In this document: positions 2,049 through 28,371 of the stretch, in pieces
Layout: each line of letters starts with the position of its first letter
Numbering within the stretch: position 1 is the stretch's first letter
NCBI GenBank assembly: GCA_902589095.1
Contig: CACIRR010000003.1
Location: 1 to 55,029 of the forward strand
Origin: an uncultured Alphaproteobacteria bacterium
GTDB lineage: Bacteria; Pseudomonadota; Alphaproteobacteria; HIMB59; GCA-002718135
Length of the DNA: 55,029 nt
Direction: 5' to 3'
Notes under the pieces: generated by a model
What the model saw: the letters and a program-made list of their open reading frames with translations, nothing else
What the model was told of the DNA's origin: nothing
The model's database searches: none
Position numbers and translations under genes: made by a program

Positions 2049-2903
2049 TTAACCTTTTACTGATCCAGCAGTTAAGCCATTAATAACTCTTTCCTGGAAT
2101 AATACAAATACAGTTATACTTGGCAAAATACTAATTACCACTGCAGCAAACATTCCTACATAATCTGAAAAGAATTGATTAGTAAAATAACTTATTCCAA
2201 ATTGAATAGTTCTTATGTCTGTTGAAGATGTCAAAAGCATTGCATAGATAAATTCATTCCAACACAAAATAAATTGAAACGTTCCCGCAGTTGCCAAGCC
2301 TGGCAAAGCTAAAGGTAACATAATCCTAAAATATCTAGCAGCAAAATTACAACCATCTAAAAATGACGCCTCTTCAATTTCCTTGGGTATGGATTTAAAA
2401 AACTCTGTAAGAATAAATGTTGAGACAGGAAGTCCAACAGCACAATAAACTAAAATTAGTCCAAACCTTGTATCATAAAGATTTAAAAAATTAATAATTG
2501 CAAAATAAGGAATTATCAGTGCATTTAATGGAACTAATATACCAGCCGTTATCATTAAAAATAGAACATTCTTTCCCCAAAAAGTATGTCGAGCTATTGC
2601 AAATGCACACATTGATGAAAATAAAATATTTAAGAAGGTTGCACTGGTACTAATTACTAAAGAATTAATTATTAGCTTTCCTAGTCCTGCCTCACGAATA
2701 GCATTAGAATAATTTTGAAATTGAAATACCGCTGGTAGTTTAAATGGGTCATCAAGTAATTCTGCATTAGTTTTCAATGAGGCGAGCACCAACCATAGAA
2801 AAGGAAATACTGCATAAAAGACAAAGGATATTATGATTACCCATTTAAAAATAAAATAAAAGTTTGAAGATAGATCTCTTTGCATTTTAGTTATAGGTTT
2901 CAC
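2049..2903 (-). CDS. Carbohydrate ABC transporter permease (MalG-like)
   Basis: Hydrophobic helices, EAA loop IPKEIEEASFLDG, C-terminal GLTAGSVKG. Confidence 0.92.
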   Translation of the reverse strand: MKPITKMQRDLSSNFYFIFKWVIIISFVFYAVFPFLWLVLASLKTNAELLDDPFKLPAVFQFQNYSNAIREAGLGKLIINSLVISTSATFLNILFSSMCAFAIARHTFWGKNVLFLMITAGILVPLNALIIPYFAIINFLNLYDTRFGLILVYCAVGLPVSTFILTEFFKSIPKEIEEASFLDGCNFAARYFRIMLPLALPGLATAGTFQFILCWNEFIYAMLLTSSTDIRTIQFGISYFTNQFFSDYVGMFAAVVISILPSITVFVLFQERVINGLTAGSVKG

Positions 2904-3759
2904 TTTTTAATAATTTACGAAGTGATAATAAAAGAATAGCACCAATTGCTATCATTATCACTCCTGCGGCATTTCCTCGACCAAGTCTTTGTACTGATAA
3001 TTCATTCCAGATATAAACAACAAGCACTTGTGTTTTATTTGCGGGTCCTCCCGCAGTCATCAAATATACATATTCAAACTGTCTTAAGTTAAATATGACA
3101 GCTAAAATTATACATAGAAAAAAAGTACTTTTAATTAACGGTGCAGTAATATGTAGATCTTTTTGAAATTGGCTAGCTCCATCTATATTAGCTGCATCAT
3201 AATAATCCTCTGAAATGCCCGCAGTTTTTGCAAGCATAATAACCATAAAATATCCAACATAACACAAAGAGAAACCAATTAAGGCTGCATTTGCTGTTCT
3301 TATATTACCAAGCCAGTTGTGATTTTTATAATCAGAAAAACCAATGTAGTCTAACAAGAAATTAACTAAACCATATTCTGCATTGAACATAGCAGCCCAT
3401 AACATAGCTATCGCAGCTGATGACACAACCTGAGGAATAAATAGAACTGTTCTAAATACTTTCCATCCTCTAGACCTATGAGCCAAAAGTAATGCAATTA
3501 TTAGTGCTAAAGGAACAGTAATTAAAGCAGCAGTAAGGCACCAATATAGATTATTGGTTATTGCTCTTACAAAAGATTTTTTATTAAATAATTTAGTGTA
3601 ATTTTCTAGACCAACAAATTCTGCACTAATTCCATCCCAGTTAGTAAAACTTGTAACAAAAAGAAAAAGAATAGGTATGATAAAAAAAAGAAAAAAAAGA
3701 ATAATTGCAGGGGCAATAAATAACAGAAGCCATACAACTTCATCTTTTTTTATTTGCAT
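2887..3759 (-). CDS. Carbohydrate ABC transporter permease (MalF-like)
   Basis: FVGLENY, EAA loop YYDAANIDGA, VYLMTAGGPA. Confidence 0.92.
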   Translation of the reverse strand: MQIKKDEVVWLLLFIAPAIILFFLFFIIPILFLFVTSFTNWDGISAEFVGLENYTKLFNKKSFVRAITNNLYWCLTAALITVPLALIIALLLAHRSRGWKVFRTVLFIPQVVSSAAIAMLWAAMFNAEYGLVNFLLDYIGFSDYKNHNWLGNIRTANAALIGFSLCYVGYFMVIMLAKTAGISEDYYDAANIDGASQFQKDLHITAPLIKSTFFLCIILAVIFNLRQFEYVYLMTAGGPANKTQVLVVYIWNELSVQRLGRGNAAGVIMIAIGAILLLSLRKLLKSETYN

Positions 3760-3769
3760 AAATAGATAA

Positions 3770-3798
3770 AACTATGAGGTAATGAATACCTCATAGTT
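3770..3798 (-). terminator. Stem-loop after the solute-binding protein gene (partial terminator or mRNA stabiliser)
   Basis: AACTATGAGGTA-atgaa-TACCTCATAGTT, perfect 12-bp inverted repeat. Confidence 0.7.
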
Positions 3799-3808
3799 AT
3801 TTAGATTA

Positions 3809-5065
3809 TTATTCGGCGTCTTTTAGCATTTCAACAGCGCCCTCTGGTGTCACTTCACCTAAAGCTAAAGCTGACAATGCTTGTGGAAATTCACTTACAA
3901 TTGGTAAAGAACCCATTCCGTTCATGAATGTTTTAGCTACATAAGGAGCATTTCCTTTTTGCTCATTCATTTCAATGAATAGTCTGTCCATATCGCTAGG
4001 TAAATCAGCCTTTACAATAAACATCGCGCCAGAACTATAAGATAGTCTTGCAACATTTTCTGGAGTTGTTAACCATTTTAAGAATTTTACAACCGCTTCT
4101 TCTTTTGCTGGATCAGATTGTTTACCAGCAGCTAAAGAAGATTGCTTTCCACCAACATAGCCACCTGGAGCACCTTCTCCACCAGTTAGCATTGGAGCTG
4201 GAGCTACACCTATATTTTCATGCAAGCCAGGTATACCATCAGAAGTATAACGAGCGATGAACCAAGGTCCATTCATGAAAACTGCAGTTCTTTCATTTAA
4301 GAAATGTCCACCAGAGACACCCGCATCTGCACCAACTGCATCACTTGTAGTGTATTGATACATTTTTTCCATAACTTCAAAAGCTTTTACAAAAGCAGGA
4401 TCATCAAGTCCTCTCTCATAAACATTTGGTCCACCAGCTGAAGCTAGTGCTTGAGAAAACCACAACATTGAGGTCCAAGCATTTTTAGCTGTCATTTGTG
4501 ACGTACAAACTTTTCCTGTTGCAGTAACAGCTTCGCACATTTTGAAGAATTCATCATACGTAGCAGGAAACTCATCATAACCAGCAGCTTTTAATAATTT
4601 TTTATTATAAGTAACTGGTGTCACAAAAAGTTCATATGGCAGATTAGTTAATTGACCGCCCATCATATTACTTTCAAGAGCTCCTTCTGGGTAAACATTA
4701 TTCCAATGTGAGTCAGAAGCTACATGAGGAGCAAGATCCATTGCCTTGCCACTTCTGTGCAAAATACTCAGTAAGTCTGCGCCAACTGTAAATATATCTG
4801 GCAAATCACCAGTAGATATCTGAGCAGTTAATTTTTGTGCATAAATATCGTAATCAGTTTGTTCCTCTATTACAACTTTTATAGAACCTGAATTTGCAGA
4901 ATTGAATTCATCTACAAGTTCACTAATAACTGTTGACTTTGAGTCTTTTCCAACCCAAATTGATGGCCAGTTAATTGTAATTTCTGCAGAAGCTACTGTC
5001 GAAATTACAGTTAGTGAAGTTGAAATGAAAACTACTGAAAATAATTTTAATATTGATTTAATCAT
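3809..5065 (-). CDS. Sugar ABC transporter solute-binding protein (family 1)
   Basis: Signal peptide ending ASA, GDLPDIF, YNKKLLKAAG, AVFMNGPW; GGAGG RBS upstream; precedes two permeases. Confidence 0.9.
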   Translation of the reverse strand: MIKSILKLFSVVFISTSLTVISTVASAEITINWPSIWVGKDSKSTVISELVDEFNSANSGSIKVVIEEQTDYDIYAQKLTAQISTGDLPDIFTVGADLLSILHRSGKAMDLAPHVASDSHWNNVYPEGALESNMMGGQLTNLPYELFVTPVTYNKKLLKAAGYDEFPATYDEFFKMCEAVTATGKVCTSQMTAKNAWTSMLWFSQALASAGGPNVYERGLDDPAFVKAFEVMEKMYQYTTSDAVGADAGVSGGHFLNERTAVFMNGPWFIARYTSDGIPGLHENIGVAPAPMLTGGEGAPGGYVGGKQSSLAAGKQSDPAKEEAVVKFLKWLTTPENVARLSYSSGAMFIVKADLPSDMDRLFIEMNEQKGNAPYVAKTFMNGMGSLPIVSEFPQALSALALGEVTPEGAVEMLKDAE

Positions 5066-5305: not shown

Positions 5306-6328
5306 ATGAAATCTAGCAATATTGGAAAATTTATACACATTAAAAAATTATGTAACGATCAAGGTCATTTACAAATGCTCGCAATCGATCAAAGACCACC
5401 AATATTTAATTTAATAAAAAATAAAAAAAAGAGATATATCTACAAGGATGTCGTCGATTTTAAAAAACATATATCACTAAGCCTATCTAAGCACTCCACT
5501 GCTATACTAATGGATCCGGTTTATTCAGTGCCTAATTTAATTACTTCAAGTAAAAGTAAAGGCTTGATAGTTACTCTTGAAGATCATGATTTTATTGAAA
5601 AAGATAAAGGTAGATATTCAAAAAATATTAAAAATTGGTCAGTTGAAAAAATAAAAAGAATGGGTGGTGATGCTGTCAAAGTACTAGCTTGGTATCGACC
5701 TGATGCTGATGAAAAATCTATTGAACATCAAAAAAAATATATAGCAACAATAGGCAGGGAATGTCAAAAATATGATATTCCTTTTTTATTAGAACTATTG
5801 GTTTATCCATTTAAAAATGAAATTGGATATTCAAAAGACTATAAAGAGCAACTATATAAAAATCACAATCATGTAATTGATAGTGTGAAAGAATTTTCTA
5901 AAGCAAAATACAAAGTTGATATTTTTAAATTAGAAAGTCCTGTAGATAGTAACCAATTACAAAATAGTAAATTCACTAAAGCTACAGAAGATGCTTTCAA
6001 AGAATTGTCTAAGGCAACAAGAAATATTCCATGGGTAATGCTTTCCTCCGGGATGAGTAAGAATTCTTTTTTTAATTGCTTAAAATTAGCTTATAAAAAT
6101 GGTGCCTCGGGATATCTTGCGGGCAGAACTATTTGGCTAGATGCTTTTAAAGATTATCCAAATTATAAAAAAATAATAACAAAGCTTAATAAGGAAAGTC
6201 TAAGTTATGTTAAAAAATTAAATGAACTTACGAATAAAAACGCTCTATCTTTAGAAAAATTTTTAACACAAAAACTAATCCAAAAAAACGCTGCAAATTT
6301 TAAAGCTATTTATAAAGGCTTTCGATGA
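5306..6328 (+). CDS. Class I aldolase of the LacD/YihT family (tagatose-1,6-bisphosphate or sulfofructose-1-phosphate aldolase)
   Basis: MLAIDQR, AVKVL, PFLLE, DIFKLE (Schiff-base Lys), WVMLSSG, GASGYLAGR. Confidence 0.85.
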   Translation: MKSSNIGKFIHIKKLCNDQGHLQMLAIDQRPPIFNLIKNKKKRYIYKDVVDFKKHISLSLSKHSTAILMDPVYSVPNLITSSKSKGLIVTLEDHDFIEKDKGRYSKNIKNWSVEKIKRMGGDAVKVLAWYRPDADEKSIEHQKKYIATIGRECQKYDIPFLLELLVYPFKNEIGYSKDYKEQLYKNHNHVIDSVKEFSKAKYKVDIFKLESPVDSNQLQNSKFTKATEDAFKELSKATRNIPWVMLSSGMSKNSFFNCLKLAYKNGASGYLAGRTIWLDAFKDYPNYKKIITKLNKESLSYVKKLNELTNKNALSLEKFLTQKLIQKNAANFKAIYKGFR

Positions 6329-7701
6329 TTGGGTGCTTTAGTTTAGCAAGAGAAACTTTTGATATTAAATTTGCCAAGAAAAAATTAGCAACAACCAAAA
6401 GAATAATAAAAAAATTAAATAAAAATATAAATTTTTTTGATGAGTTAATAACTAATGATGAAATTGGAAAAAGCGCTTTAAAACACTTTGAAAATATTAA
6501 ATGCACAAAGTTTATAGTTATTCAATCAACTTTTACTGATGCAAAATTTATTTCTTCTTTTGTTAAGAAATTTAAAAAACCTGTATTATTTATTTCATTT
6601 AAAGAAAAAAGATCGGGCGGACGCTTAAGATTGAATTCACTTTGTGGAGTAAATTTAGGATTACATGCATTAATTAAAAGTAAATTTTATTCTAATTTTA
6701 TAATTTTCAAGACTGAGGAGCGATCTTTTTCAAATGAAATATTAAAATTTATTAAAAATAAGAATAATTTTACTAAAAAAAATTATTTGAGAAAAATAAA
6801 TTCAAAAAATATTAATAATAGAATTATCAATTTTAAAAAACCACAGTTAGGGCTGATCGGTGAAAGGCCAGAAGGCTTTGATACTTGTGATTTTAATAAT
6901 GAAGATTTAAAATCCAAGTTTAATGCCAAAATAAAAAAGATAAAATTGCAAAATTTATTTAATATTTCAAGCAAGGTTGATAAAAAAATAATCAATGCAA
7001 CAAAGAAAAATATAAGCAAAAAACTTAAACATATAAATCAAGTAAACCAAAAAGAACTGAATAAAAGTATATCTCTATTCCATGGTCTTAAACAAGTTCA
7101 ACAAAAACAAAATATTGATGCATTTGCAGTTCGTTGTTGGCCTGAAATGTTCACAGAGTATGGTTGTGCTTCATGTGGACCAATGGCTATGATGAATGAA
7201 AATAAAATAAGCTCTGCTTGTGAAGCTGATGTACTTGGAAGCTTAACATGCAACATTTTAAATCAATTAAATAACAAGCCAGCTTTATTAGTCGATATTG
7301 TCGATGTGGATGACAGAGATAATACCACTGTTTTTTGGCATTGTGGACTAGCCCCTATAAGTATGGCAGAGAAAAATACACCCAGTGCCACAGTTCACTC
7401 TAATAGAAGAAAGCCTCTTCTGCATAACTTTGCGCTTAAGTCAGGTGATATAACAATTTTTCGTGTTTCAAAATCAGAAAATAAATTAAAATTTATAGTA
7501 ATGAATGGAACAGTGCTTAAAAGAAAAAATTCTTTTTCTGGAACTTCAGGAGTAATAAGTTTAGGTAAAAATACACACAACAAAATAAAAAATTTATTTT
7601 TAAGCGGTTTAGAACATCATGTAGGGTTTACTTATGGAAATGTGCTTGAAGATATTAAAAGCTTAGGAAAGCAGTTAAGAATACCTACATATACAATATG
7701 A
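6325..7701 (+). CDS. L-fucose/L-arabinose isomerase-family protein; candidate sulfoquinovose isomerase (SqvD/SftI type)
   Basis: RLNSLCG, AVRCWPE, ACEADVLG, FWHCG, GLEHH; ATGA overlap with the aldolase gene. Confidence 0.8.
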   Translation: MIGCFSLARETFDIKFAKKKLATTKRIIKKLNKNINFFDELITNDEIGKSALKHFENIKCTKFIVIQSTFTDAKFISSFVKKFKKPVLFISFKEKRSGGRLRLNSLCGVNLGLHALIKSKFYSNFIIFKTEERSFSNEILKFIKNKNNFTKKNYLRKINSKNINNRIINFKKPQLGLIGERPEGFDTCDFNNEDLKSKFNAKIKKIKLQNLFNISSKVDKKIINATKKNISKKLKHINQVNQKELNKSISLFHGLKQVQQKQNIDAFAVRCWPEMFTEYGCASCGPMAMMNENKISSACEADVLGSLTCNILNQLNNKPALLVDIVDVDDRDNTTVFWHCGLAPISMAEKNTPSATVHSNRRKPLLHNFALKSGDITIFRVSKSENKLKFIVMNGTVLKRKNSFSGTSGVISLGKNTHNKIKNLFLSGLEHHVGFTYGNVLEDIKSLGKQLRIPTYTI

Positions 7702-8786
7702 ACGCAACTACAAAATATGGAATTATTGGAACTGGTGTAATGGGCCAAGAACATATTCAAAATATAAATATAATTGAAAATGCAGAAGTAGTAGCAATTT
7801 GTGATACTAATGAAGGCTCTAAAAACAAGGCCAAGTCATTAGTCAAAGAGTCAACAATATTTTATAATAATTTAAATGAATTAATAAGTGCAAATACTGC
7901 AGATGCTTATATTATTGCTACACCCAATTATACACATATAGATGTATTAGAACAAATATTAGTAACAAACAAACATTTGTTAGTTGAAAAACCATTGTGC
8001 ACAACGACTGAAGATTGTAAAAAATTTGAGCTACTTTCAAAAGATTATTCAAAGATAATTTGGACTGGAATGGAATATAGATATATGCCACCTGTAAAAC
8101 GTTTGATTGATGAAGTTCATAATAATGTCATTGGTAATATTAAAATGTTATCAATACGTGAACATCGATTTCCTTTTTTACACAAAGTTGATGATTGGAA
8201 TAGATTTGCTATTAACACAGGAGGTACATTAGTTGAAAAATGTTGTCACTTCTTTGACTTGATGCGACTCGTTATTCAAAGTGAGCCAATCAAAGTTTAT
8301 GCAAGCGGAAATCAAGATGTTAATCATTTGGATGAAAAATATGATGGTAAAACTCCAGATATTATAGACAATGCATATGTAATTGTTGATTTTGAAAACG
8401 GTGCACGAGCAATGCTTGATTTATGTATGTTTGCAGAAAATTCAGAATACCAAGAAGAAATAGTGGCTGTTGGTGACCTAGGAAAAGTTGAAACATTTGT
8501 TCCGTCCAGTGCTTCAGGTAAAGACTCTTCAGAAGTTATAATTGGTATACGAAAAGATAATGTTGTTAAATCAACAGAAATAAAAGTTGATAAGGAAATT
8601 TTATTAGCAGGTCATCATCACGGTTCAACTTATTATGAACATTTAGCATTTATAAATGCTATTCAAAAAAATGAAAAACCTGAAGTATCTTTAAGAGATG
8701 GATTAATGTCAGTAGCTATTGGTGAGGCAGCTGAAAACTCTATCAAAGAAAACAGAGTTGTATTTATGAAAGAATTTAATTTATAA
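7698..8786 (+). CDS. sqgA: Gfo/Idh/MocA protein resembling NAD+-dependent sulfoquinovosidase (GH188)
   Basis: GIIGTGVMG, EKPL, GMEYRY, EHRFPFLHKVDDWNRF, GGTLVEKCCHFFDL, GHHHGSTYYEH; sulfoglycolytic context. Confidence 0.7.
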   Translation: MNATTKYGIIGTGVMGQEHIQNINIIENAEVVAICDTNEGSKNKAKSLVKESTIFYNNLNELISANTADAYIIATPNYTHIDVLEQILVTNKHLLVEKPLCTTTEDCKKFELLSKDYSKIIWTGMEYRYMPPVKRLIDEVHNNVIGNIKMLSIREHRFPFLHKVDDWNRFAINTGGTLVEKCCHFFDLMRLVIQSEPIKVYASGNQDVNHLDEKYDGKTPDIIDNAYVIVDFENGARAMLDLCMFAENSEYQEEIVAVGDLGKVETFVPSSASGKDSSEVIIGIRKDNVVKSTEIKVDKEILLAGHHHGSTYYEHLAFINAIQKNEKPEVSLRDGLMSVAIGEAAENSIKENRVVFMKEFNL

Positions 8787-9704
8787 ATTGAAAAATTCTT
8801 TTGCAGTTTTAGCTATAAATTCACTTACTCTTTTGTTAGACTCTTCAGTCACTCCTGCAACATGGGGACTGAGTATGCAATTTGTATTTTTTTTAACTTT
8901 TTCTAAAAAAGCTTTAGGTACAGGTTCTGTATTGTAAACATCAAGTGCAAATCCTGAAATCAGCTTTTCTTCATAGGCTCTTAATAAATCTTGTTCGTTA
9001 ACGATAGAACCTCGTGACGAATTAATGATAATAGGCTGTTTTACCATTTTCTTGAAAGTATTATAATTTAATAAATTTTTAGTATTTTCAGTGAGAGGTA
9101 AGTGAATTGAAATTACATCTGACATTCTAAAAACATCATTTATATCAATTAATTTTGTATCAAATTGATTACCAACACTTGGATCAAGATATGGATCGTA
9201 GGCAATTATTTTTGCTTCAAAAACTTTAGCTAGGGTAGATACTTTTTTTGCAATTAAACCAAAACCAAGCAAACCAATTGTCTTGCCCCTAAGTTCTCTT
9301 GAACTAATTGAGGTTCGAGGCCAATTTCCAATCAAAGTTTCTTGGTGCATTAAAGGAATATTTTTTAACAAGGTAAGAGCTGCATTAATAACATATTCAG
9401 CAACGGAGTCAGCATTCATACCTGTAGCTGGTTGCACATGAATATTATGATTTTTACAATATACGGTATCTATATTATCAAGACCAACACCCAAACGCCC
9501 AACAAATTTTAGATTATTCGCCTTATCAAGAACTTCTTTAGTAACTTGTGTTTTATTTCTTACAATTAAAGCATCAAAACTATTAATTATTTTTTTTAAT
9601 TCAGTATTATTAGTTGAAAGATCATGATCTACCGTAACCTCAAAATTAGTTTTTAGTAGCTCAACATATTCGACATCCATAAATTCAGTTATCAAAATTT
9701 TCAT
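8781..9704 (-). CDS. slcC: D-2-hydroxyacid dehydrogenase, (S)-sulfolactate dehydrogenase-like
   Basis: ILITEFMD N-terminus, LIVRNKTQV, GRLGVGLDNID, PATGMNADSVAEY, PHVAGVTEESNKRVS; same operon as comDE. Confidence 0.75.
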   Translation of the reverse strand: MKILITEFMDVEYVELLKTNFEVTVDHDLSTNNTELKKIINSFDALIVRNKTQVTKEVLDKANNLKFVGRLGVGLDNIDTVYCKNHNIHVQPATGMNADSVAEYVINAALTLLKNIPLMHQETLIGNWPRTSISSRELRGKTIGLLGFGLIAKKVSTLAKVFEAKIIAYDPYLDPSVGNQFDTKLIDINDVFRMSDVISIHLPLTENTKNLLNYNTFKKMVKQPIIINSSRGSIVNEQDLLRAYEEKLISGFALDVYNTEPVPKAFLEKVKKNTNCILSPHVAGVTEESNKRVSEFIAKTAKEFFNL

Positions 9705-9708
9705 AAAA

Positions 9709-10614
9709 CTATATTTCCTTTAATTGTATTTTTTTTACAAATTTTTTAACAGATGAAAGATTAGGTAATGAATAAATTCCACCATTTTTTGTGCACTTTA
9801 AGGAAGCTGTGGCTGTTGCAAGTTTCATAGCATTTTGTACAGAGTGCTTTTGATGAATAAAGGCTGCAAAACCTCCATGAAATACATCACCTGCACAATT
9901 TGTTTCAACAACTTTAATTTTAGGAGGTTTGCAATTAAAAATTAAACCATTTTCAATCCAATACACACCTTTTTCACCAGCCGTTATTGCATAAAATTTA
10001 TTTTTTATTGAATACATTTTCTTTAATGACCCAACAATTGATTTAATTTTTGTATATTCAAATGCACCTGTCTCAGAAAAGATAAGATGGGAAGATAAAT
10101 GAATTATTTGTTTGATTTTTTTGTTTAATTTATAATTATCAAGATCGACAATATGATTTAGATTATTTTTATTACAATTTTTGGCAATATAGAGGGTTGC
10201 TTCAACCCATCTTAGATCAGACATGATTGTCGTATTTTTTTTAAATACAATTTTAGGTAATTTTTTATTATTTAATAATTTTTTTTCACTAAAAGCAGCA
10301 AGAAGTCTTTCGCCTTGCTTATCTTCGTAAACAAAACTTTGTGATGATTTAACCCCTTTAATCTCAAGAATGTTATTATGTTTAATTTTAAATTTTTTTA
10401 ATTCATTTTTTAAAAATTTTGAGGCATCATCATTTCCAAGTCTTCCAATAAATGAAGTATTTATTCCAAGTTTTTTAATAGTAAAACTAGCAACAGCTGC
10501 AGATCCTCCAAGTCTTTTTTCTATCCCTTGGGCAAGTACTTTAATAGGTTTTTTGGGGAAACTATCAATTTTAACAATATGATCTAAAAAAACTGACCCT
10601 ACACAAATAATCAT
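9709..10614 (-). CDS. PfkB/ribokinase-family sugar kinase; candidate sulfofructose kinase (YihV-like)
   Basis: GGSAAVAS, GRLGNDD, DLRW, VETNCAGDVFHGGF. Confidence 0.8.
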   Translation of the reverse strand: MIICVGSVFLDHIVKIDSFPKKPIKVLAQGIEKRLGGSAAVASFTIKKLGINTSFIGRLGNDDASKFLKNELKKFKIKHNNILEIKGVKSSQSFVYEDKQGERLLAAFSEKKLLNNKKLPKIVFKKNTTIMSDLRWVEATLYIAKNCNKNNLNHIVDLDNYKLNKKIKQIIHLSSHLIFSETGAFEYTKIKSIVGSLKKMYSIKNKFYAITAGEKGVYWIENGLIFNCKPPKIKVVETNCAGDVFHGGFAAFIHQKHSVQNAMKLATATASLKCTKNGGIYSLPNLSSVKKFVKKIQLKEI

Positions 10615-10635
10615 ATTAAAATTATATATTAAAAA

Positions 10636-11205
10636 TTAGAGGTAAGAAACTAAACCTATAGATTTTCTAAATCGATCCCTAATAGTAACAGCATTCAGTG
10701 GTATTGGCTTTATTGGCACATTACCTGATTGTATTTTAGAAATAATGACATACGAGTTATCTTTATCAGCTAATGCCTTTTTTAAATTTCCATCTGTTTC
10801 TTCCCCAGAACACTCTATAACATTTTTACATCCAGCTCCAATAGCAACCTCTTTTAATGAGGTACGTTCATTCGTAAAAGTTTTTTGATCGCCAGTAGAA
10901 CCATAAGAGCCGTTATCAACTATGAGAAGAGTATAATTTGAAGGTGCTCTATTACCTATAGTTGCAAGGGTATTCATATTCATTAAAACCGACCCATCAC
11001 CATCAATACTAATCACATTTTTATCAACTGTTAAAGATAATCCTAAACCAATTGATGATGCTAAACCCATACTTCCTAGCATGTAAAAATAATTTGGGCG
11101 GTCATTAAGTTTATATAATTCTTGTGAAGGAAGTCCAATGTTGCAAATAACTAATTCGTCTTGAATTGTTTTTTTCAACAGGTTTAATAATTCAAATCTA
11201 TTCAT
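10636..11205 (-). CDS. comE: Sulfopyruvate decarboxylase beta subunit
   Basis: CNIGLPSQEL, FYMLGSMGLASSIGLG, TPP-binding DGDGSVLMN...DNGSYGSTGDQ. Confidence 0.9.
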   Translation of the reverse strand: MNRFELLNLLKKTIQDELVICNIGLPSQELYKLNDRPNYFYMLGSMGLASSIGLGLSLTVDKNVISIDGDGSVLMNMNTLATIGNRAPSNYTLLIVDNGSYGSTGDQKTFTNERTSLKEVAIGAGCKNVIECSGEETDGNLKKALADKDNSYVIISKIQSGNVPIKPIPLNAVTIRDRFRKSIGLVSYL

Positions 11206-11207
11206 CT

Positions 11208-11705
11208 CTAGTCATCCTTCATTAAATTAAAATTACAAAGTACAGCGACAGGACTTTCAATTACTTTTGCATGATTAGTAAAGGTAGATATTTTATCAAG
11301 ATCATCTTCAGTGTTACAATGAAGCATAGGTATGCGAAGGGTATTCAATATATCTTCAGTAACACTTGCCATTCCACCCTGAGCTCCAACTGGCTCTCCA
11401 GGAGTGCCTCGATAACTTATCAAGAAAACAACTGGCATTTGGTATAGTTGCAAAAGAGAAACAATAGAATTGACAGAATTACCAATTCCAGTGTTTTGCA
11501 TCATTATACATGGAAGTTTATTCCCTAAATACGCACCGGCACAAATACCCATTCCTTCTTCTTCTCTTGGAATAGCTGAGTAATAAATATCTTTATCATT
11601 CTCTAAAATGGTGATCATATTTGCTAGAAGTTTACATGGAACACTTAAGAAAAAATCTGCTCCACCTTCTTTTAAATTTGTAATAATTTTTTGGCTTATT
11701 TTCAT
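11208..11705 (-). CDS. comD: Sulfopyruvate decarboxylase alpha subunit
   Basis: SVPCKLL, REEEGMGICAGAYL, MQNTGIGNSVN, ISYRG; ATG at 11705 preferred to 11735. Confidence 0.9.
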   Translation of the reverse strand: MKISQKIITNLKEGGADFFLSVPCKLLANMITILENDKDIYYSAIPREEEGMGICAGAYLGNKLPCIMMQNTGIGNSVNSIVSLLQLYQMPVVFLISYRGTPGEPVGAQGGMASVTEDILNTLRIPMLHCNTEDDLDKISTFTNHAKVIESPVAVLCNFNLMKDD

Positions 11706-11754
11706 TTTGTAAGAGTAATACTTCAATAAAACCATAAGACAAGATTTTATTTTT

Positions 11755-12804
11755 TTAAAAATCGTTACGTAATTTAATTTTTATCTTTGATAAATAATTT
11801 TTATTTTTTCTTAGGACAGGAGATGGAAAATTAGATTGATTTATTGCATCTGGGTAGTTTTGTGGCTCTAAACACACTCCATACTGAATTCCATATGATT
11901 TATTATGCTTACCTAAATACTTCTCCAACATCATATTTCCTGTATAAAATTGAATTCCTTGCTGATTAGTAAAATACTCAACTCCCATTTTAGTTTTTTT
12001 ACTATAAATTTTTGCAACTGGAGCCTCCATCGATTGATTATCTAAAGCATAATTGTGATCAATTCCTCCAGAATTAAGAAACTCTCTATCTATTGTATTA
12101 GATTTTCTTAAATCAAATTTTGTACCAGATACATTTAATAGCTTCCCAGTTGGTATAGACTCTTCATCGGTCTCGCATATTGCGTCGGAGTATATTTGCA
12201 CAACATGATCTTCATTATTTTGATAATGATCACGGTGTCCATGAAAATTCCAGTAATTATGATTGGTAATGTTAACTATTGTATCTTGATCTGTTGTTGC
12301 ATGAAATTCAATAGAAAGTTCATTATGATTATTTAATTCATAAATTACTTTGCAATCAAGATTTCCAGGATAATTTTCTTCCATATCAGGTGAAAGATAC
12401 CTCAAGACACATTTTGTAGAGTCATCTTTTTTTTCAATATTATCAATTTTCCAAATTTTTTTATTAAAACCAGTTTTTCCTCCATGCAGATGATTTGGGG
12501 GAGTATTTGAAAATAGTTTATAGTTTTTATCACCTAATGAAAACTGAGCACCTCCTATTCTATTAGCTACTCTTCCAACTATAGAATTAAAATACCCATT
12601 TGAATTTAGAACACCATCAACATCTCCATAACCTAGAAGAACATCCTCTGTTTTATTTTCACTGTTAAGATATGGAATATTTACTTCATGAATGTATCCC
12701 CCATAATTATAAAATTTAAAGCTAAAATTATTATCATTAACTACTTCAACTGACTCGATAGGAAGCGCAGCAGGATTTTCTATTTTGTCTTGGTTAATTT
12801 TCAT
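11755..12804 (-). CDS. galM: Aldose 1-epimerase (mutarotase, GalM family); candidate SQ mutarotase
   Basis: VGRVANRI, HLHGG, YPGNL, TNHNYWN, IDHNY, IQFYTGN, CLEPQNYPDA. Confidence 0.88.
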   Translation of the reverse strand: MKINQDKIENPAALPIESVEVVNDNNFSFKFYNYGGYIHEVNIPYLNSENKTEDVLLGYGDVDGVLNSNGYFNSIVGRVANRIGGAQFSLGDKNYKLFSNTPPNHLHGGKTGFNKKIWKIDNIEKKDDSTKCVLRYLSPDMEENYPGNLDCKVIYELNNHNELSIEFHATTDQDTIVNITNHNYWNFHGHRDHYQNNEDHVVQIYSDAICETDEESIPTGKLLNVSGTKFDLRKSNTIDREFLNSGGIDHNYALDNQSMEAPVAKIYSKKTKMGVEYFTNQQGIQFYTGNMMLEKYLGKHNKSYGIQYGVCLEPQNYPDAINQSNFPSPVLRKNKNYLSKIKIKLRNDF

Positions 12805-13703
12805 GACGCTTTTCTATCTCTTGTTTTTATAGAATTTTTTTGACGAAGATAGATGATTATTCCTCCTGCTACAATAAATAAAGCCCCAGGAAACAATTGA
12901 TCGACAGGCCATTCACTAAAGAATATCCATCCCAAAATTAATGCAAAAAATATTTCGATATAATCAAATGGCATGATTTTACTTAGCTCTGCTTTTCTTG
13001 CACCATATATTAGTAATAGAGTTCCAGTACCTCCTGCCAAACCCATAAGAAAGAAAATAAACAAATCATTGATACTTCTAAAATTTTCCCACATGCCAAA
13101 AGTTAACACTAATATTAATGATACACTTATGGTGCCCACTTGTCCGTAAATGTTAATTAATGGTGTTGGAACATCCATGGTAAAACTTAAAGAAGTCACT
13201 CTTGCTAAGGAGTAACCTAAAGCTGCTATAACTGGTAATAAAATCATATAATTAAAATCCGATGACCAAGGTTCCATTATAAGAACAATGCCTATAAAAC
13301 CAGAGATAACTGCAGATGTTTTAAACCATCCAAATTTTTCTCCAAGAATAGGCACACTTAATAGTGTTACCATCATAGGGCCTGTGTATTCCATCGTAGC
13401 TACAAGGGCAAAAGGTAAATATAAATATGAAGTATATAAACAAAGCTGAGCTAACGCTACAAAAGCTCCTCGTAGAAAACCTAATCGCCATTGTTTAATT
13501 TTAATTTTTCTTCCATTTTGATGCCATTCGGTTGAAAAATAAAGTGCAATAAAACATGGGATCATTCCAAAAAGATTTCTGAAAACAGACAATTGTGCTG
13601 CTGGGTAATCATTTCTTAAAAACTTGATGGCAATACCCATACAGTCCATCAAAAATAATCCTGAAAGGGATAAAGCAACTGCTAGTAATAAATTATGTTT
13701 CAA
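12801..13703 (-). CDS. DMT/EamA-family transporter
   Basis: About 10 hydrophobic helices, ILGEK, PFDY, GWIFFSEWP; TTG start. Confidence 0.85.
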   Translation of the reverse strand: MKHNLLLAVALSLSGLFLMDCMGIAIKFLRNDYPAAQLSVFRNLFGMIPCFIALYFSTEWHQNGRKIKIKQWRLGFLRGAFVALAQLCLYTSYLYLPFALVATMEYTGPMMVTLLSVPILGEKFGWFKTSAVISGFIGIVLIMEPWSSDFNYMILLPVIAALGYSLARVTSLSFTMDVPTPLINIYGQVGTISVSLILVLTFGMWENFRSINDLFIFFLMGLAGGTGTLLLIYGARKAELSKIMPFDYIEIFFALILGWIFFSEWPVDQLFPGALFIVAGGIIIYLRQKNSIKTRDRKAS

Positions 13704-13707: not shown

Positions 13708-14700
13708 TTAGGCGCAATTAACACCACATCGATCAACCCAATGTCCTGGTGTTACTTCAACTAATCCCATTTCAATATTTGCTTCTTTACCATCTTTGGA
13801 AGCATGGGGGCATCTTGTCCTAAATACACAACCCGATGGTGGATTCATTGCACTAGGTATTTCTCCCTGAAGTTCAATAGCTCGTGATTTATTTTCAGGA
13901 TCAATAGATGGAATAGAAGATAATAATGCTTTTGTATAAGGATGTCTTGGATTACTAAATAGTTCTCTTGAAGGAGCCATCTCAACTATGTGACCAAGAT
14001 ACATTACAGCAACAATATCACAAACGTGAGCTACAACACTTAAATCATGGCTTATAAATAAATATGTTAAATTTAACTCATTTTGCAGTTGCTTTAAAAG
14101 ATTTAATATATCCGCTTGAATTGAGACATCTAATGCAGCAACACTTTCATCAGCTACAATAAATTTTGGATTACTTACTAGTGCTCTTGCAATAGAGATA
14201 CGTTGACGCTGCCCCCCAGAAAAAGCATGTGGAAATCTTCTTAAGTGCTCAAGATTTAATCTACATTTAGCGGCAATATCTCGAACTCTCGCATCAGTTT
14301 CTTCTCTAGAATTTGTTATCTTCATAACTTCTAAAGGTTCTGCAATTATATCTCTAACAGTCATTCGAGGACTAAGTGCAGCGTATGGGTCTTGAAAGAT
14401 AAGCTGTGCTTTTTTTCTATATTCTTTCATTTCCTTTGAATTAATGGTTGTTAAATCAAAATCTCTGCCATCATCATGAAAAATTACATTTCCAGTACTT
14501 ATTTTATTTGCACCCAATATTGCTCTTCCAAGTGTAGTTTTTCCAGATCCAGATTCTCCAACAAGACCAAAGAAAGATCCTTTTTTAATCTTAATGTTAA
14601 TATTATTAACAGCTTTTATTTTTTGCTTCTTTGAAAGAAAATTCTCTTGGTAATCAAAAGATACCGAAAGATTGTTTACTGATACAATATTTTCACTCAT
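13708..14700 (-). CDS. Peptide/nickel-type ABC ATPase (DppF/OppF-like)
   Basis: GESGSGKTT, FSGGQRQR, ADESVAALD, Cys-rich oligo-HPY tail; ATG at 14700 overlaps the upstream stop (ATGA). Confidence 0.92.
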   Translation of the reverse strand: MSENIVSVNNLSVSFDYQENFLSKKQKIKAVNNINIKIKKGSFFGLVGESGSGKTTLGRAILGANKISTGNVIFHDDGRDFDLTTINSKEMKEYRKKAQLIFQDPYAALSPRMTVRDIIAEPLEVMKITNSREETDARVRDIAAKCRLNLEHLRRFPHAFSGGQRQRISIARALVSNPKFIVADESVAALDVSIQADILNLLKQLQNELNLTYLFISHDLSVVAHVCDIVAVMYLGHIVEMAPSRELFSNPRHPYTKALLSSIPSIDPENKSRAIELQGEIPSAMNPPSGCVFRTRCPHASKDGKEANIEMGLVEVTPGHWVDRCGVNCA

Positions 14701-15683
14701 GTTTTCCCACAATCAACACCACATTTGTCTAACCAGTGACCTGGTTTTATCTCTACTAAACCCATTTTTATATTTCCTTCCTTACCTTCTTTAGAGGCAT
14801 GAGGGCACCTAGTTCTAAAAACACATCCACTAGGTCTATCTAAAGGACTTGGAATATTACCTGGGATTGGTGTAAGTGGTGCATCTAAATTATTTATATC
14901 AGGAAGAGCATTTATTAACCCTTTTGTATAAGGATGCATTGGATTTTTTAAAATTTCATTTACCGGCCCTTGCTCTACAACACTGCCAAGATACATAACT
15001 GCAACATCATCTGCTACTTGAGCAATAACACCAAGATCATGAGTGATAAATATTACACCCATATTGTATTCTTTAATAATATCTTTCATTAAATTTATTA
15101 CCTGCGCTTGAATGGTTACATCTAACGCTGTTGTAGGTTCATCAGCTAACAATAGTTTAGGCATTGTTGATAAAGCCATAGCAATCATTGCCCGCTGCCT
15201 CATTCCTCCTGACAACTCAAACGCATATTGATTAAATCGTTTTTCAGCATCTGCTATCCCTACCCGATTTAACATATCTATTGATATATTTTTTGCTTCC
15301 TTTTTATCCATAGGTTTATGAATCATAAGTTGCTCAACCATTTGGTAACCAATTTTAATTGCTGGAGCAAAACTAGCCATTGGTTCTTGAAAAATCATTG
15401 AAACTTTTCCACCTCTAATTTTTTTCAAATCATTTTTTGAGGTAAATTTTAAAACATTTTCTTCATCAATTAATATTTCTGCATTTTCATTATATATTGT
15501 ATTTCCTGGATTGAGTTGCATGATAGATTTTGCTGTAACAGATTTGCCAGATCCTGACTCACCAACAATACCTAAAACCTTTCCTTGATCCAATGTTAAA
15601 GAAACATTATCAATTGCTGTTATACGACCTTCATCAGTATCAAACTTTACATCAAGATTATTTATTTCTAAAAGATGAGTCAT
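14697..15683 (-). CDS. Peptide/nickel-type ABC ATPase (DppD/OppD-like)
   Basis: GESGSGKS, LSGGMRQR, ADEPTTALDVTIQAQ, HPYT. Confidence 0.92.
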   Translation of the reverse strand: MTHLLEINNLDVKFDTDEGRITAIDNVSLTLDQGKVLGIVGESGSGKSVTAKSIMQLNPGNTIYNENAEILIDEENVLKFTSKNDLKKIRGGKVSMIFQEPMASFAPAIKIGYQMVEQLMIHKPMDKKEAKNISIDMLNRVGIADAEKRFNQYAFELSGGMRQRAMIAMALSTMPKLLLADEPTTALDVTIQAQVINLMKDIIKEYNMGVIFITHDLGVIAQVADDVAVMYLGSVVEQGPVNEILKNPMHPYTKGLINALPDINNLDAPLTPIPGNIPSPLDRPSGCVFRTRCPHASKEGKEGNIKMGLVEIKPGHWLDKCGVDCGKT

Positions 15684-15689
15684 AGAATA

Positions 15690-16853
15690 TTAATTTTTTG
15701 TTTTGTGTGGATCTGCAGCGTCTCGAAGACCATCTCCAACATAGACAAAAGTTAAAATTAAAACAACTAAGAAAAAGACAGGTATAAAATACCATTGATA
15801 GTTTAGTAAAACATCTGCCTTTGTTGCATTTTGTAAAAGTACACCCAATGAATTTACAGGTTCTCTTAACCCTAAGCCTATAAAACTTAGAGCAGTTTCA
15901 GATAACAACATGTAAGGAAAGCTGATAACCAGATCAACAATTATGTAGCTTGTAAAACTCGGTAAAAGATGTCTAATAATTATATGGGTTGATGAAGCGC
16001 CACACATTTTAGCTGCCAAAATATATTCTTGACTTCTTTCACTTAGTAAATGGGTTCGAACACGTCTTGCCAAAGTTGGCCAGGATATCAAACCTAATAA
16101 ACAGGATATAAAGAAAAACCTAAGTTCTGAACTCCATTCAAGAGGTGCAAAAGCGGCAAGACACATAAATAAAGGTATGGGTGGAACTGTTCGAATAGCA
16201 TCCGTAAACATTTGTAACAAACTATCAATCCAACCACCATAATATCCAGATATACCTCCAATAATTAAGGACAAAACAAAAGAGATAAACACTCCCAGTG
16301 TTCCAACAGCTAATGATATATATATTGCACTTAAGGTTCTACTAAATAAATCTTTTCCTGCTTTATCAGTTCCAAATAGATGAATTCCACCTTCCTCCAC
16401 ACCAAATAAATGCGTATCAAATGTTAGTCCAGGAATTGTAAAATCTAATGCCTTACCTGGAAGATTAATACTATAATTAAAATATTTATATTCCCAACCT
16501 TTAACAAAAAAATAAACATACCGTCTTTTTTCAGTATCTGTTTTATAAACCCATCTGAAATTTGTATCAGCTCCTCTATACTTTGTTAGAGTATGTAAAA
16601 AAGGTCTAGGAGAAAAACCGTTTTCATCCCAAAACATTGGAATTTGTGGGGCACCGTTTTCATAATTTTTATCACGACCTGCTATTGTAGGATCATATGG
16701 AGATAAAAATCCAGAAAAAAGACTGCAAATTATCATAATTAACAAAATAGATCCTGCTATCATCGCTGAACGGTTTCCAAAGAAACGCGTTCTTACTAAT
16801 TGCATTTGAGTAGCAGTATAGTATGCCTCTTTCTTTTTTATACTAACTTCCAC
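15690..16853 (-). CDS. Peptide-type ABC permease (DppC/OppC-like)
   Basis: HLFGTDKAGKDLFSR, EYILAAKMCGAS, ETALSFIGLG, GDGLRDAADP. Confidence 0.92.
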   Translation of the reverse strand: MEVSIKKKEAYYTATQMQLVRTRFFGNRSAMIAGSILLIMIICSLFSGFLSPYDPTIAGRDKNYENGAPQIPMFWDENGFSPRPFLHTLTKYRGADTNFRWVYKTDTEKRRYVYFFVKGWEYKYFNYSINLPGKALDFTIPGLTFDTHLFGVEEGGIHLFGTDKAGKDLFSRTLSAIYISLAVGTLGVFISFVLSLIIGGISGYYGGWIDSLLQMFTDAIRTVPPIPLFMCLAAFAPLEWSSELRFFFISCLLGLISWPTLARRVRTHLLSERSQEYILAAKMCGASSTHIIIRHLLPSFTSYIIVDLVISFPYMLLSETALSFIGLGLREPVNSLGVLLQNATKADVLLNYQWYFIPVFFLVVLILTFVYVGDGLRDAADPHKTKN

Positions 16854-17856
16854 CCATTACTCCTTTTCTAATTCTTGGATCCATTATTGCTAGTAATATA
16901 TCAGTAACAAAATTTACAAAAACAATTGTTGCAGTTAACAAAAATATAATGGCACCTGCTAATTGTTGATCATTAGATCTAGCCAGAGCCTCAATCAACA
17001 ATGCACCAGCTTCAGTTAAAATTAAAATCAATGCAACAACTGGAAGTGCACTAAAAATTCTATTTAAATCAAAACCAATTGAATTAATAACTGGTCCAAG
17101 TGAGTGCTTTGCTGGATAGCGCCATAAAAGACTCATACCTGATATTCCTCTTGCTCTTGCTGCCATAACATAAAGTTTATCATTTTCATCTAACATTAAT
17201 GCTCTAACGGTTTGAAGTGCAAAAGCAGTAGCGTTCCATCCCAGAACAAAAATTGGCAACCAAGCTCTAGCAAGAAAATCTTTTAATTTATCAGCGGACC
17301 AAGGCGCATTTTCATATTCTTGAGAAAATAAACCTGTCATCGTATCTCCATAATACACTGTCATAAAAAGCATAATACAAAGTGCTACTAAAAAATTCGG
17401 TAAAGCTATTCCAAGATAGCTAATAAATTTCAGAGACTGATCTAAAGACACGTATTTTGTCGTGGCGGAAATAATACCAACTGGTATCGCTATTAAATAC
17501 GAAAAAATTAAAGCTACTAAACATATGGTAAGTGAAAGCACAAACCTCCCACTAAGAAGATCATTAATATTCATACGAAGAATACAACTATCTCCAAAAT
17601 CTTGTTTAACAGCAATATCGGATACCCATTTTCCAAATCGATATAAAAAGGGTTTGTCTAAACCAAGTCGCACTTTCTCTGCCTCAATATCCTCAAAGGT
17701 AATTTGTGAACCTTGAGTATTTTTAAAGGCAAGATATCGTTCCGCACAAGTTCCTGGAACTAACTCCATTAAAGAAAAAACAATAAAACAAACTATGAGT
17801 AATGTTACTATCGATAAAAATGCTCTTGTAATTGTAAACTGTACAAAATTAATCAT
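16843..17856 (-). CDS. Peptide-type ABC permease (DppB/OppB-like)
   Basis: LGLDKP, YVMAARARG, DILLAIMDPRIR; ATG at 17856 chosen because the ORF-track TTG at 17913 lies inside a hairpin. Confidence 0.9.
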   Translation of the reverse strand: MINFVQFTITRAFLSIVTLLIVCFIVFSLMELVPGTCAERYLAFKNTQGSQITFEDIEAEKVRLGLDKPFLYRFGKWVSDIAVKQDFGDSCILRMNINDLLSGRFVLSLTICLVALIFSYLIAIPVGIISATTKYVSLDQSLKFISYLGIALPNFLVALCIMLFMTVYYGDTMTGLFSQEYENAPWSADKLKDFLARAWLPIFVLGWNATAFALQTVRALMLDENDKLYVMAARARGISGMSLLWRYPAKHSLGPVINSIGFDLNRIFSALPVVALILILTEAGALLIEALARSNDQQLAGAIIFLLTATIVFVNFVTDILLAIMDPRIRKGVMGGS

Positions 17857-17902
17857 AATTTGATTTTTTATTAATTGATATCCAAGACTAATTAGAAAAA
17901 AT

Positions 17903-17931
17903 AAAAGCGGCAATAAAAAATTGCCGCTTTT
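17903..17931 (-). terminator. Stem-loop after the family-5 solute-binding protein gene
   Basis: AAAAGCGGCAAT-aaaaa-ATTGCCGCTTTT, followed by T-rich sequence on the minus strand. Confidence 0.75.
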
Positions 17932-17952
17932 TAAAGAATTTATTAATTTACC

Positions 17953-28239: not shown

Positions 28240-28371
28240 AAATGTCCCCAAATAAGCAAAATTTACCTAGCCTTACATCATACAAATACCTAATCCAAGA
28301 GGAATTCTTGATGTTTTTCTTAATTTCGTAGGAAAAATTGACGCCCTAGTATAGAAGAAAAAAATTCAATT

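Follow-up and report, generated by a model that had tools for sequence, protein, structure and literature searches.

We describe here a compact group of genes for the putative breakdown of sulfoquinovose (SQ) and its glycosides on contig CACIRR010000003.1 of an uncultured Alphaproteobacteria bacterium (NCBI GenBank assembly GCA_902589095.1). The window, by which we mean the whole stretch of 55,029 nucleotides that was analysed, has a G+C content of about 30% and belongs to an assembly of 1.13 Mb in 68 contigs that is 66.6% complete. A first interpretation made from the letters of the window (hereafter the sequence-only reading) had placed two convergent operons at positions 5306–12804. Gene set and arrangement are borne out, with open reading frames at exactly these coordinates:

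5306–6328, plus strand: class I aldolase, PRK12858/LacD-like (PF01791, NF009498)
6325–7701, plus strand: SftI/SqvD-like isomerase (NF048012, PF02952)
7698–8786, plus strand: SqgA of glycoside hydrolase family 188 (GH188), a GFO/IDH/MocA oxidoreductase (8qc3, 8qc2, 8zn9; PF01408 and PF02894)
8781–9704, minus strand: D-2-hydroxyacid dehydrogenase, similar to SerA and phosphoglycerate dehydrogenase (PGDH) (PF02826, PF00389)
9709–10614, minus strand: PfkB kinase, YihV-like (PF00294, 7ag6)
10636–11205, minus strand: ComE, predicted sulfopyruvate decarboxylase beta subunit (TIGR03846)
11208–11735, minus strand: ComD, predicted sulfopyruvate decarboxylase alpha subunit (TIGR03845)
11755–12804, minus strand: aldose 1-epimerase, GalM type (PF01263)

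The plus-strand operon consists of the aldolase, the isomerase and SqgA, and neighbouring genes in it overlap by 4 nt. The minus-strand array comprises the 2-hydroxyacid dehydrogenase, the PfkB kinase, ComE, ComD, the epimerase, an EamA transporter and an Opp-type ATP-binding cassette (ABC) transporter; the last two extend the array past 12804 to position 20013 with gaps of a few bases. The two operons converge and overlap by 6 bp, and between 5306 and 12804 the genes either overlap or are separated by at most 21 bp.

With a probability of roughly 0.7, we interpret the locus as encoding the uptake of SQ glycosides and a glycolysis of sulfo-Embden–Meyerhof–Parnas type (sulfo-EMP), joined to a module that would process the C3 sulfonate product. 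Comparison with solved structures strongly confirms that the protein at 7698–8786 belongs to the GH188 family of NAD+-dependent sulfoquinovosidases. It has the two-domain architecture of the GFO/IDH/MocA family (PF01408 plus PF02894), and over residues 4–357 it matches ArSqgA (8qc3, E = 3e-111) and FlSqgA (8qc2, E = 5e-111), with 8zn9 following at 1e-106. In ArSqgA, Lys107, Tyr136, Glu189, His193 and His321 are catalytic, while Arg166, Lys172 and the backbone of Leu170 contact the sulfonate (PMC10755693). All eight of these residues are identical in the window protein in a HMMER alignment (the residue list is that of PMC10755693, and the numbering is that of chain positions minus an offset of 13 residues). 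The “GH188-like protein” of the sequence-only reading can therefore be named with confidence, given the E values of about 1e-111 and the complete set of published catalytic and sulfonate-binding residues. A hand count gives about 50% identity to chain 8zn9, which was apparently deposited with a marine survey.

The PfkB kinase at 9709–10614 also resembles an enzyme of sulfosugar metabolism. It matches PF00294 with 131 bits, its best match in the PDB is the sulfofructose kinase 7ag6 (E = 1e-39), and it is 29% identical to YihV of Escherichia coli (E = 8e-48). The YihV residues Asp13, Lys27, Ser95, Arg138, Asp162 and Asp244 (the last in the GAGD motif) are kept. Lys27 and Arg138, here Lys25 and Arg135, belong to the triad Lys27-Asn109-Arg138 to which the accessible part of PMC8006165 attributes sulfonate binding. 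We propose, from these similarities, that the protein is a YihV-like sulfofructose kinase.

For the isomerase at 6325–7701 the sole NCBIfam match is the model of the sulfoquinovose isomerase SftI (NF048012), which it matches over its full length with 300 bits; the Fucose_iso_C domain PF02952 is recognised at 31.5 bits against a cut-off of 29.3. A sequence search of the PDB gave no match, and there is none to E. coli YihS. A model computed with AlphaFold from 14 sequences reached a predicted local distance difference test (pLDDT) of 77 and a predicted template modelling score (pTM) of 0.83. With this model Foldseek retrieved, as its best matches, L-arabinose isomerase (E = 1e-17) and L-fucose isomerase (5e-11) with a probability of 1.00. 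Sequence and model together suggest an SftI/SqvD-like protein of the L-arabinose/L-fucose isomerase fold, and we propose that it converts SQ to sulfofructose. The protein has many relatives: 1748 were found at E ≤ 0.001 among 8000 scored candidates, including proteins from “Alphaproteobacteria bacterium MarineAlpha5_Bin5” and “Rickettsiales bacterium”, and several of the clusters formed at 90% identity contain hundreds of sequences each.

The epimerase matches PF01263 with 249 bits and TIGR02636 with 259 bits, below the cut-off of 398 for the latter, and is 21% identical to E. coli YihR (E = 3e-7). We propose that it acts as an SQ mutarotase.

The aldolase needs more discussion. It belongs to PF01791 (DeoC/LacD, 95 bits) and scores 322 bits on PRK12858/NF009498, for which the cut-off is 184. 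Its best match in the PDB is 8tnf (7e-77, 262 bits), deposited as a “DUF2090 domain-containing protein”, followed by LacD (about 1e-36, 129 bits) and YihT (2.5e-16, 63 bits). Among the titles and abstracts searched, we found none that places 8tnf or DUF2090 in the context of sulfosugars. Lys208, Ser247, Ser248 and Arg274 align with Lys193 (which forms the Schiff base), Ser226, Ser227 and Arg253 of YihT. In a tree of 20 sequences the aldolase groups with those of three alphaproteobacterial single-cell genomes (support 96/97), this group is adjoined by one from Thioglobus and Dehalococcoidia (88/94), and LacD and a paralogue are found on the opposite side of the tree. The phylogeny with YihT and LacD, which the sequence-only reading had put forward as a check, does not bring the protein close to YihT, which sits apart on a very long and insecure branch (8.2 substitutions per site). 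YihT-type aldolases for sulfofructose-1-phosphate (SFP) form one sequence cluster at a similarity of at least 52.5%, according to the accessible part of Sharma et al. (2023; PMC10665668). Membership of the window aldolase in this cluster can be ruled out, since it is 25% identical to YihT and both LacD and 8tnf score higher. Of the “LacD/YihT class I aldolase” that had been called, the class and the likeness to LacD (PF01791, PRK12858) hold, and the assignment to the YihT type does not. Likewise, the expected combination of an SqvD-type isomerase with YihV- and YihT-type enzymes is supported for the isomerase and the kinase and fails for the aldolase. Sequence similarity leads us to propose instead a class I SFP aldolase of the PRK12858/LacD-like clade.

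Three genes of the minus-strand array point to what may happen to the C3 product. ComD scores 155.3 bits on TIGR03845, above the cut-off of 147.95, and ComE scores 218.2 bits on TIGR03846, 3 bits short of the cut-off of 221.5. Models of phosphonopyruvate decarboxylase reach only 125 and 96 bits on ComE and ComD against a cut-off of 312.5. The dehydrogenase matches PF02826 with 159 bits and PF00389 with 92 bits, and its best NCBIfam match is the PGDH model TIGR01327 (255 bits, cut-off 454). Such a likeness to SerA is consistent with SlcC, since the accessible part of PMC6303947 locates the SlcC of Chromohalobacter salexigens within the SerA clade or next to it. The earlier calls of slcC and comDE thus agree with our results, and we propose that the dehydrogenase is an SlcC-like sulfolactate dehydrogenase that makes sulfopyruvate.

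From homology and gene linkage, on which all of its steps are based, the following pathway can be proposed. An ABC transporter would import sulfoquinovosyl glycerol or a similar glycoside, from which SqgA, with NAD+ as cofactor, would release SQ. The GalM-type epimerase would interconvert the SQ anomers, and the isomerase would turn SQ into sulfofructose. The YihV-like kinase would phosphorylate this to SFP, and the PRK12858 aldolase would use Lys208 to cleave SFP into dihydroxyacetone phosphate (DHAP) and sulfolactaldehyde. Up to this point the scheme is that of the sequence-only reading, and the sequences of SqgA, the isomerase and the kinase fit it. Sulfolactaldehyde would then be oxidised to sulfolactate by an aldehyde dehydrogenase that has no assigned gene, which leaves a gap in the scheme. 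The SerA-like 2-hydroxyacid dehydrogenase would make sulfopyruvate from sulfolactate, ComDE would decarboxylate it to sulfoacetaldehyde, Xsc (expected past the end of the contig) would split this into acetyl phosphate and sulfite, and Pta, which is encoded in the window, would transfer the acetyl group to give acetyl-CoA.

The cluster is well conserved. A scan of species-representative genomes yielded 79 loci, which were compared by tblastn; a locus was assessable for the aldolase if about 1.2 kb upstream of the isomerase was available, and for the downstream genes if at least 6.5 kb was. Alphaproteobacteria contribute 55 loci (isomerase at least 40% identical). SqgA, the PfkB kinase, the dehydrogenase, ComE and ComD are present in 47/47 of those assessable, with ComE and ComD fixed between kinase and epimerase in every one, and the epimerase and EamA genes in 46/47. 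An arrangement kept in 47 of 47 loci goes beyond chance. The aldolase lies next to the isomerase in 7/48 alphaproteobacterial loci, and all seven have an isomerase that shares 79% identity or more with that of the window. Gammaproteobacteria (Thioglobus, Pseudothioglobus, Thiotrichales) provide 16 loci, with the aldolase next to the isomerase in 12/13, SqgA in 10/10, kinase and dehydrogenase in 9/10 and ComDE in 0/10. The single locus from Dehalococcoidia has the aldolase and the core cassette. Four distant loci (isomerase 32–35% identical) have the aldolase in three cases and SqgA in one. Of the remaining three loci, two carry no class label and one lacks a full match to the isomerase. Within the genus of the window, 16 of 24 genomes carry the isomerase; among 16 genomes of a second family in the same order, only paralogue-level matches (25–27% identity) were found, in eight.

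Two loci from other lineages are of particular interest. In Pseudothioglobus sp. nBUS_23 the operon consists of a DeoR regulator, aldolase, isomerase, SqgA, kinase and dehydrogenase, and ends next to a glycerol kinase gene, which fits a glycoside of glycerol as the substrate. In Exilibacterium tricleocarpae a GabD-type dehydrogenase, a PfkB kinase, a PRK12858 aldolase, the isomerase and a GH31 enzyme form one uninterrupted block, and a homologue of the 2-hydroxyacid dehydrogenase lies nearby. Taken together with the other loci from Thioglobus/Pseudothioglobus and Dehalococcoidia, the set of aldolase, isomerase, kinase, dehydrogenase and an SQ glycosidase hence occurs repeatedly, in different classes and in two phyla.

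Sister clusters in Alphaproteobacteria (L019 and most of L041–L108) have no aldolase and a different ABC transporter block. In L019 (G021:C2), the only sister locus examined upstream, a GH31 enzyme of 793 amino acids is encoded upstream in addition to SqgA. The host had been called SAR11-like, which is only loosely right: one related record is named “Pelagibacteraceae bacterium AG-337-I02”, and others are “uncultured Alphaproteobacteria bacterium”, “MarineAlpha5_Bin5” and “Rickettsiales bacterium”. Fourteen DNA sequencing runs share 0.40–0.45 of the sampled words of the window and RNA runs at most 0.19, figures that are word counts and not alignments.

Outside the eight genes listed above, the window holds further features that bear on transport and on the fate of the sulfonate:

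2049–5065, minus strand: sugar ABC transporter, with a binding protein (3809–5065) and permeases (2887–3759 and 2049–2903), divergent from the aldolase operon
12801–13703, minus strand: EamA/DMT (drug/metabolite transporter) protein (PF00892, two repeats)
13708–20013, minus strand: Opp/Dpp-type ABC transporter, with two ATPases, two permeases and a binding protein of 686 amino acids (OppF/OppD/OppC/OppB/OppA-like NCBIfam matches)
25784–26899, strand opposite to pta and preceding it: alanine dehydrogenase
26899–28251, strand opposite to pta: class-III aminotransferase (AptA model, 587 bits)
28372–29283, plus strand: Pta, phosphate acetyl/butyryl-transferase (NF008852, 272 bits; NF006045, 292 bits)
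50629–51963 (DctM), 51960–52571 (DctQ) and 52630–53727 (DctP), minus strand: tripartite ATP-independent periplasmic (TRAP) transporter (Pfam DctP, DctQ)
53972–55027, plus strand: glucose-methanol-choline (GMC) oxidoreductase, choline-dehydrogenase-like (Pfam GMC_oxred_N), cut by the contig end

The contig ends just short of where we would expect Xsc. Positions 47196–55029 are 89% identical over 7856 nt to the nearest relative (G020:C5, locus L118), in which the immediate neighbour of the GMC oxidoreductase gene is one for Xsc (944 bits against a cut-off of 676). Xsc scores above the cut-off in 4/4 same-genus genomes checked, and in two of them it shares a contig with the cluster at a distance of about 40–55 kb. 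By this synteny we expect Xsc about 0.55 kb beyond the end of the contig, and the spacing agrees with such a position. The TRAP transporter and GMC oxidoreductase beside Xsc in the relative resemble the isethionate utilisation genes IseKLM and IseJ. The set at 25784–30185 (alanine dehydrogenase, aminotransferase, Pta and a second EamA protein) resembles a module of Tpa, Ald and Pta that leads from taurine to sulfoacetaldehyde. Judged by its gene content, the window reads as a sulfonate island.

The sugar ABC transporter at 2049–5065 has GlcT/GlcU/UgpA/UgpE-like permeases and a MalE/GanS-like binding protein (NCBIfam), and a subset of the relatives keeps the block next to the isomerase; it is a candidate importer of the SQ glycoside. 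EamA at 12801–13703, of which a paralogue with 25% identity follows pta at 29283–30185, possibly exports a sulfonate or sulfite. The Opp/Dpp-type transporter lies 4 bp upstream of EamA and is kept there at 82–99% identity in many relatives; it may carry a pathway-related non-peptide substrate. The sulfosugar cluster is flanked by sulfatase and formylglycine-generating enzyme (FGE)-like genes at 68–2042 and by a second sulfatase at 20183–21712; one of the sulfatases is PehA-like (438 bits), and a connection to sulfated sugars is possible.

Several observations weigh against our interpretation. The third residue of the sulfonate triad of YihV, Asn109, is replaced by Ala107 in the kinase. The isomerase, at 300 bits, remains far below the SftI equivalog cut-off of 700 (NF048012), and so do the orthologous proteins of Pseudothioglobus, of Exilibacterium and of a sister alphaproteobacterium (279–300 bits), which points to a related subfamily and not the curated SftI equivalog. 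The Lys, the first Ser and the Arg of the YihT set occur in LacD as well, so that the matching residues of the aldolase are no evidence of sulfonate specificity. The inspection of sulfonate-pocket residues, another check put forward at the outset, thus gives a divided answer: two of three residues are kept in the kinase, and those of the aldolase do not discriminate. The binding proteins of both ABC transporters gave no PDB sequence match to a solved sulfoquinovose-binding protein. Pfam and NCBIfam scans found no sulfolactaldehyde dehydrogenase or reductase (YihU, SlaB/GabD) in the cluster, and we rejected the best GabD-like gene of the genome (contig C5) as a dedicated enzyme for this step because it sits among ectoine-utilisation genes. 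Xsc is missing from this assembled genome, which is two-thirds complete. Finally, the aldolase is absent from 41/48 assessable alphaproteobacterial loci, and an ortholog was found in 1/24 same-genus genomes. In the conserved cassette, the aldolase is hence either dispensable or replaceable.

One could argue from this absence that the aldolase is a later addition to the locus that acts on another ketose-1-phosphate, outside the cassette, while SFP is cleaved by a different enzyme. A paralogue with 30% identity indeed belongs to another sugar cluster, which includes a DhaK/DhaL kinase, and the same genome encodes, at G000:C30:2588–3400 (locus L120), a class II aldolase of 277 amino acids whose best PDB matches, at 1.5e-38, are the structures 8q57/8q58 of the class II SFP aldolase SqiA. 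Ordinary class II fructose-1,6-bisphosphate aldolases match that protein almost equally well (7e-37), however, and the stop codon of the window aldolase overlaps the start of the isomerase by 4 nt. The order aldolase-isomerase-SqgA, moreover, is found in 12/13 gammaproteobacterial loci, in the one from Dehalococcoidia and in 3/4 of the distant ones. We think it improbable that the aldolase stands outside the pathway. In the relatives without it another aldolase must serve, and the class II enzyme and the PRK12858 paralogue are candidates. Only a little more probable, and still unlikely, is that the same chemistry acts on another 6-sulfo sugar, either sulfofucose (6-sulfo-galactose) via sulfotagatose-1-phosphate or a 6-O-sulfated hexose. 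The aldolase is nearer to the LacD tagatose-1,6-bisphosphate aldolases than to YihT, and the accessible part of Stewart et al. (2025; PMC12421959) considers, without support, a route through sulfotagatose with PF00294 and PF01791 enzymes. The sulfatase and FGE-like gene at 68–2042 could be seen as pointing to a sulfated hexose, as could similar genes near a PRK12858 cluster on a Rhizobium plasmid. Yet the sulfatase block occurs in only some relatives, and ComDE and Xsc act on sulfonates, not on sulfate esters. All residues that touch SQ in the crystal structures of the complexes are kept in SqgA, among them Glu189, which contacts the C4 hydroxyl, and FlSqgA is reported to act specifically on SQ glycosides (PMC10755693).

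It is very improbable that the cluster degrades an ordinary, non-sulfonated sugar of the tagatose, fucose or galactoside type and that comDE and the dehydrogenase are merely adjacent. The generic names given by automatic annotation would suit this explanation (tagatose 1,6-diphosphate aldolase, L-fucose isomerase-like, ribokinase-like, galactose-1-epimerase and inositol 2-dehydrogenase-like). But the sulfonate-binding Arg and Lys are kept in SqgA, as are Lys and Arg in the kinase, the position of ComE and ComD is invariant among the assessable alphaproteobacterial loci, and Xsc (by synteny with relatives), Pta and other sulfonate genes are nearby. We thus favour the breakdown of SQ by a sulfo-EMP-type pathway over each of these explanations.

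Homologues of the aldolase and the isomerase are also found in other settings. The second sugar cluster (G000:C2:46000–56737 plus C50; also locus L030, G022:C7) contains a GH51-like arabinofuranosidase, an ABC transporter, a psicose-3-epimerase-like protein, E1alpha/E1beta thiamine enzymes and the DhaL/DhaK kinase, together with a paralogue of the fucose isomerase (139–151 bits on the SftI model) and the PRK12858 aldolase paralogue. On plasmids of Rhizobium sp. CC-CFT758 (L114) and Shinella sp. HZN7 (L115), a PRK12858 aldolase shares an operon with a LacI regulator, a sugar ABC transporter, a zinc alcohol dehydrogenase, a PfkB kinase, a short-chain dehydrogenase/reductase, an enolase-family protein and a TSUP-family transporter; the Shinella operon adds a succinate-semialdehyde-type dehydrogenase, and FGE and sulfatase genes lie near the Rhizobium one. 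These operons may represent another sulfosugar or sulfo-alditol route.

How does the proposed pathway relate to those already described? The intermediates (SQ, sulfofructose, SFP, DHAP and sulfolactaldehyde) would be the same as in the sulfo-EMP pathway of E. coli (YihQ, YihR, YihS, YihV, YihT and YihU). The window kinase is homologous to YihV, and the mutarotase and aldolase belong to the Pfam families of YihR and YihT (PF01791 for the latter). In place of the GH31 enzyme YihQ, however, the window has the GH188 enzyme SqgA, its isomerase has the fucose/arabinose-isomerase fold and no sequence match to YihS, and it has no YihU-type reductase but additional genes for processing sulfolactate. 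Such a mixture had been thought undescribed, which is not the case. Sulfo-EMP1 and sulfo-EMP2 are defined by Pfam families, and the accessible part of Sharma et al. (2023; PMC10665668) describes hybrids in Proteobacteria and Actinobacteria; PF02952, PF00294 and PF01791 together, as in the window, are a mixture of this kind. The class I aldolases in that study were gathered by BLAST from E. coli YihT. A further hybrid, from Vibrio (2026; PMC13372026, accessible part), is supported by proteomics and a mutant of the isomerase gene; there, E. coli-type sulfo-EMP enzymes are combined with the class II aldolase SqiA instead of YihT, which is a different mixture from ours. SqgA has also been described within sulfo-EMP clusters before (PMC10755693). 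With these reports in print, the hybrid nature itself is not new. Neither hybrid, as far as the accessible parts of the two papers go, is described with ComDE or an SlcC-like gene in the cluster, whereas the window has both.

Two other systems share single aspects with ours. Arthrobacter sp. AK01 (Kaur et al. 2022, 2023) also uses a GH188 SqgA as the gateway in place of a GH31 enzyme. According to the accessible part of PMC8873060, it combines YihS-, YihV- and YihT-type enzymes with a GabD dehydrogenase and excretes sulfolactate; the window has an isomerase and an aldolase of different types, and further conversion of sulfolactate is predicted. Paracoccus wurundjeri (PMC12421959, accessible part) likewise unites sulfosugar cleavage and C3-sulfonate mineralisation, with involvement of SlcC, in one organism. 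Its route is, however, an Entner-Doudoroff-type one for sulfofucose with desulfonation by SuyAB, while that of the window would be EMP-type with predicted use of ComDE and Xsc.

The lower half of our proposed pathway also has a counterpart. Roseovarius nubinhibens ISM (Denger et al. 2009) reportedly converts sulfolactate to sulfopyruvate, sulfopyruvate to sulfoacetaldehyde by ComDE, and sulfoacetaldehyde to acetyl phosphate and sulfite by Xsc, followed by Pta. There the pathway is said to serve imported sulfolactate and not to be fused to sulfoglycolysis genes. The route would thus be the same as in the window, with the fusion found only in the latter.

In the literature searched, we did not find the cassette described for Thioglobus/Pseudothioglobus, Dehalococcoidia or the present alphaproteobacterial lineage, nor a PRK12858-type aldolase as an SFP aldolase, nor a fusion of the cassette with ComDE and an SlcC-like gene, but figures or lists in Sharma 2023, Kaur 2023 or Ma 2025 may show such clusters. 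Tentatively, and in part from the order to which the genome set assigns its relatives, the host may belong to the HIMB59/AEGEAN-169 group. A comparative-genomics paper on AEGEAN-169 contains no word starting with “sulfo”; it reports ghrA, galM and extra sugar transporters for subclade II (PMC10308909), and we suspect that some of these are genes of this cluster. What we would add to existing knowledge is a broader claim, which we make tentatively and with clearly less confidence than that of the pathway itself. Abundant marine plankton bacteria with small genomes (the alphaproteobacterial lineage, Thioglobus/Pseudothioglobus and a member of the Dehalococcoidia) may share an SqgA cassette and a third type of SFP aldolase (PRK12858/DUF2090-like), and in the Alphaproteobacteria the cassette may be fused to genes for the conversion of sulfolactate to sulfoacetaldehyde, backed by Xsc and Pta.

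About 10 billion tonnes of sulfoquinovose, an abundant sulfosugar of algae, are made each year (PMC10755693). If our interpretation is true, a single cell could use five of the six carbons of SQ (as DHAP and acetyl-CoA), with one carbon lost as CO2 and the sulfur given off as sulfite, and a second organism would not be needed for the breakdown of SQ to sulfite. Marine SQ turnover is assigned mainly to Roseobacteraceae and Alteromonadaceae in the accessible part of PMC12780224, and Pelagibacter-type cells are cast as users of small sulfonates excreted by others in that of PMC13436972. The marine survey, according to its accessible part, applied a cut-off of 54% identity to RdSqgA, whereas the SqgA of the window shares about 50% with 8zn9. 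Surveys naming Roseobacteraceae and Alteromonadaceae as the main consumers in the ocean may have missed the lineages described here, and the locus would be a counter-example, with SQ used in an oligotrophic, uncultured lineage that has ample representation in metagenomes.

Another outcome is a candidate for a third sulfofructose-phosphate aldolase family. Since Pseudothioglobus sp. nBUS_23, for which there is a complete-genome record, carries the core cassette, there is a practical route to testing these ideas. If they are true, a new group whose member here is an uncultured small-genome marine alphaproteobacterium would be added to the known consumers of SQ in the ocean.

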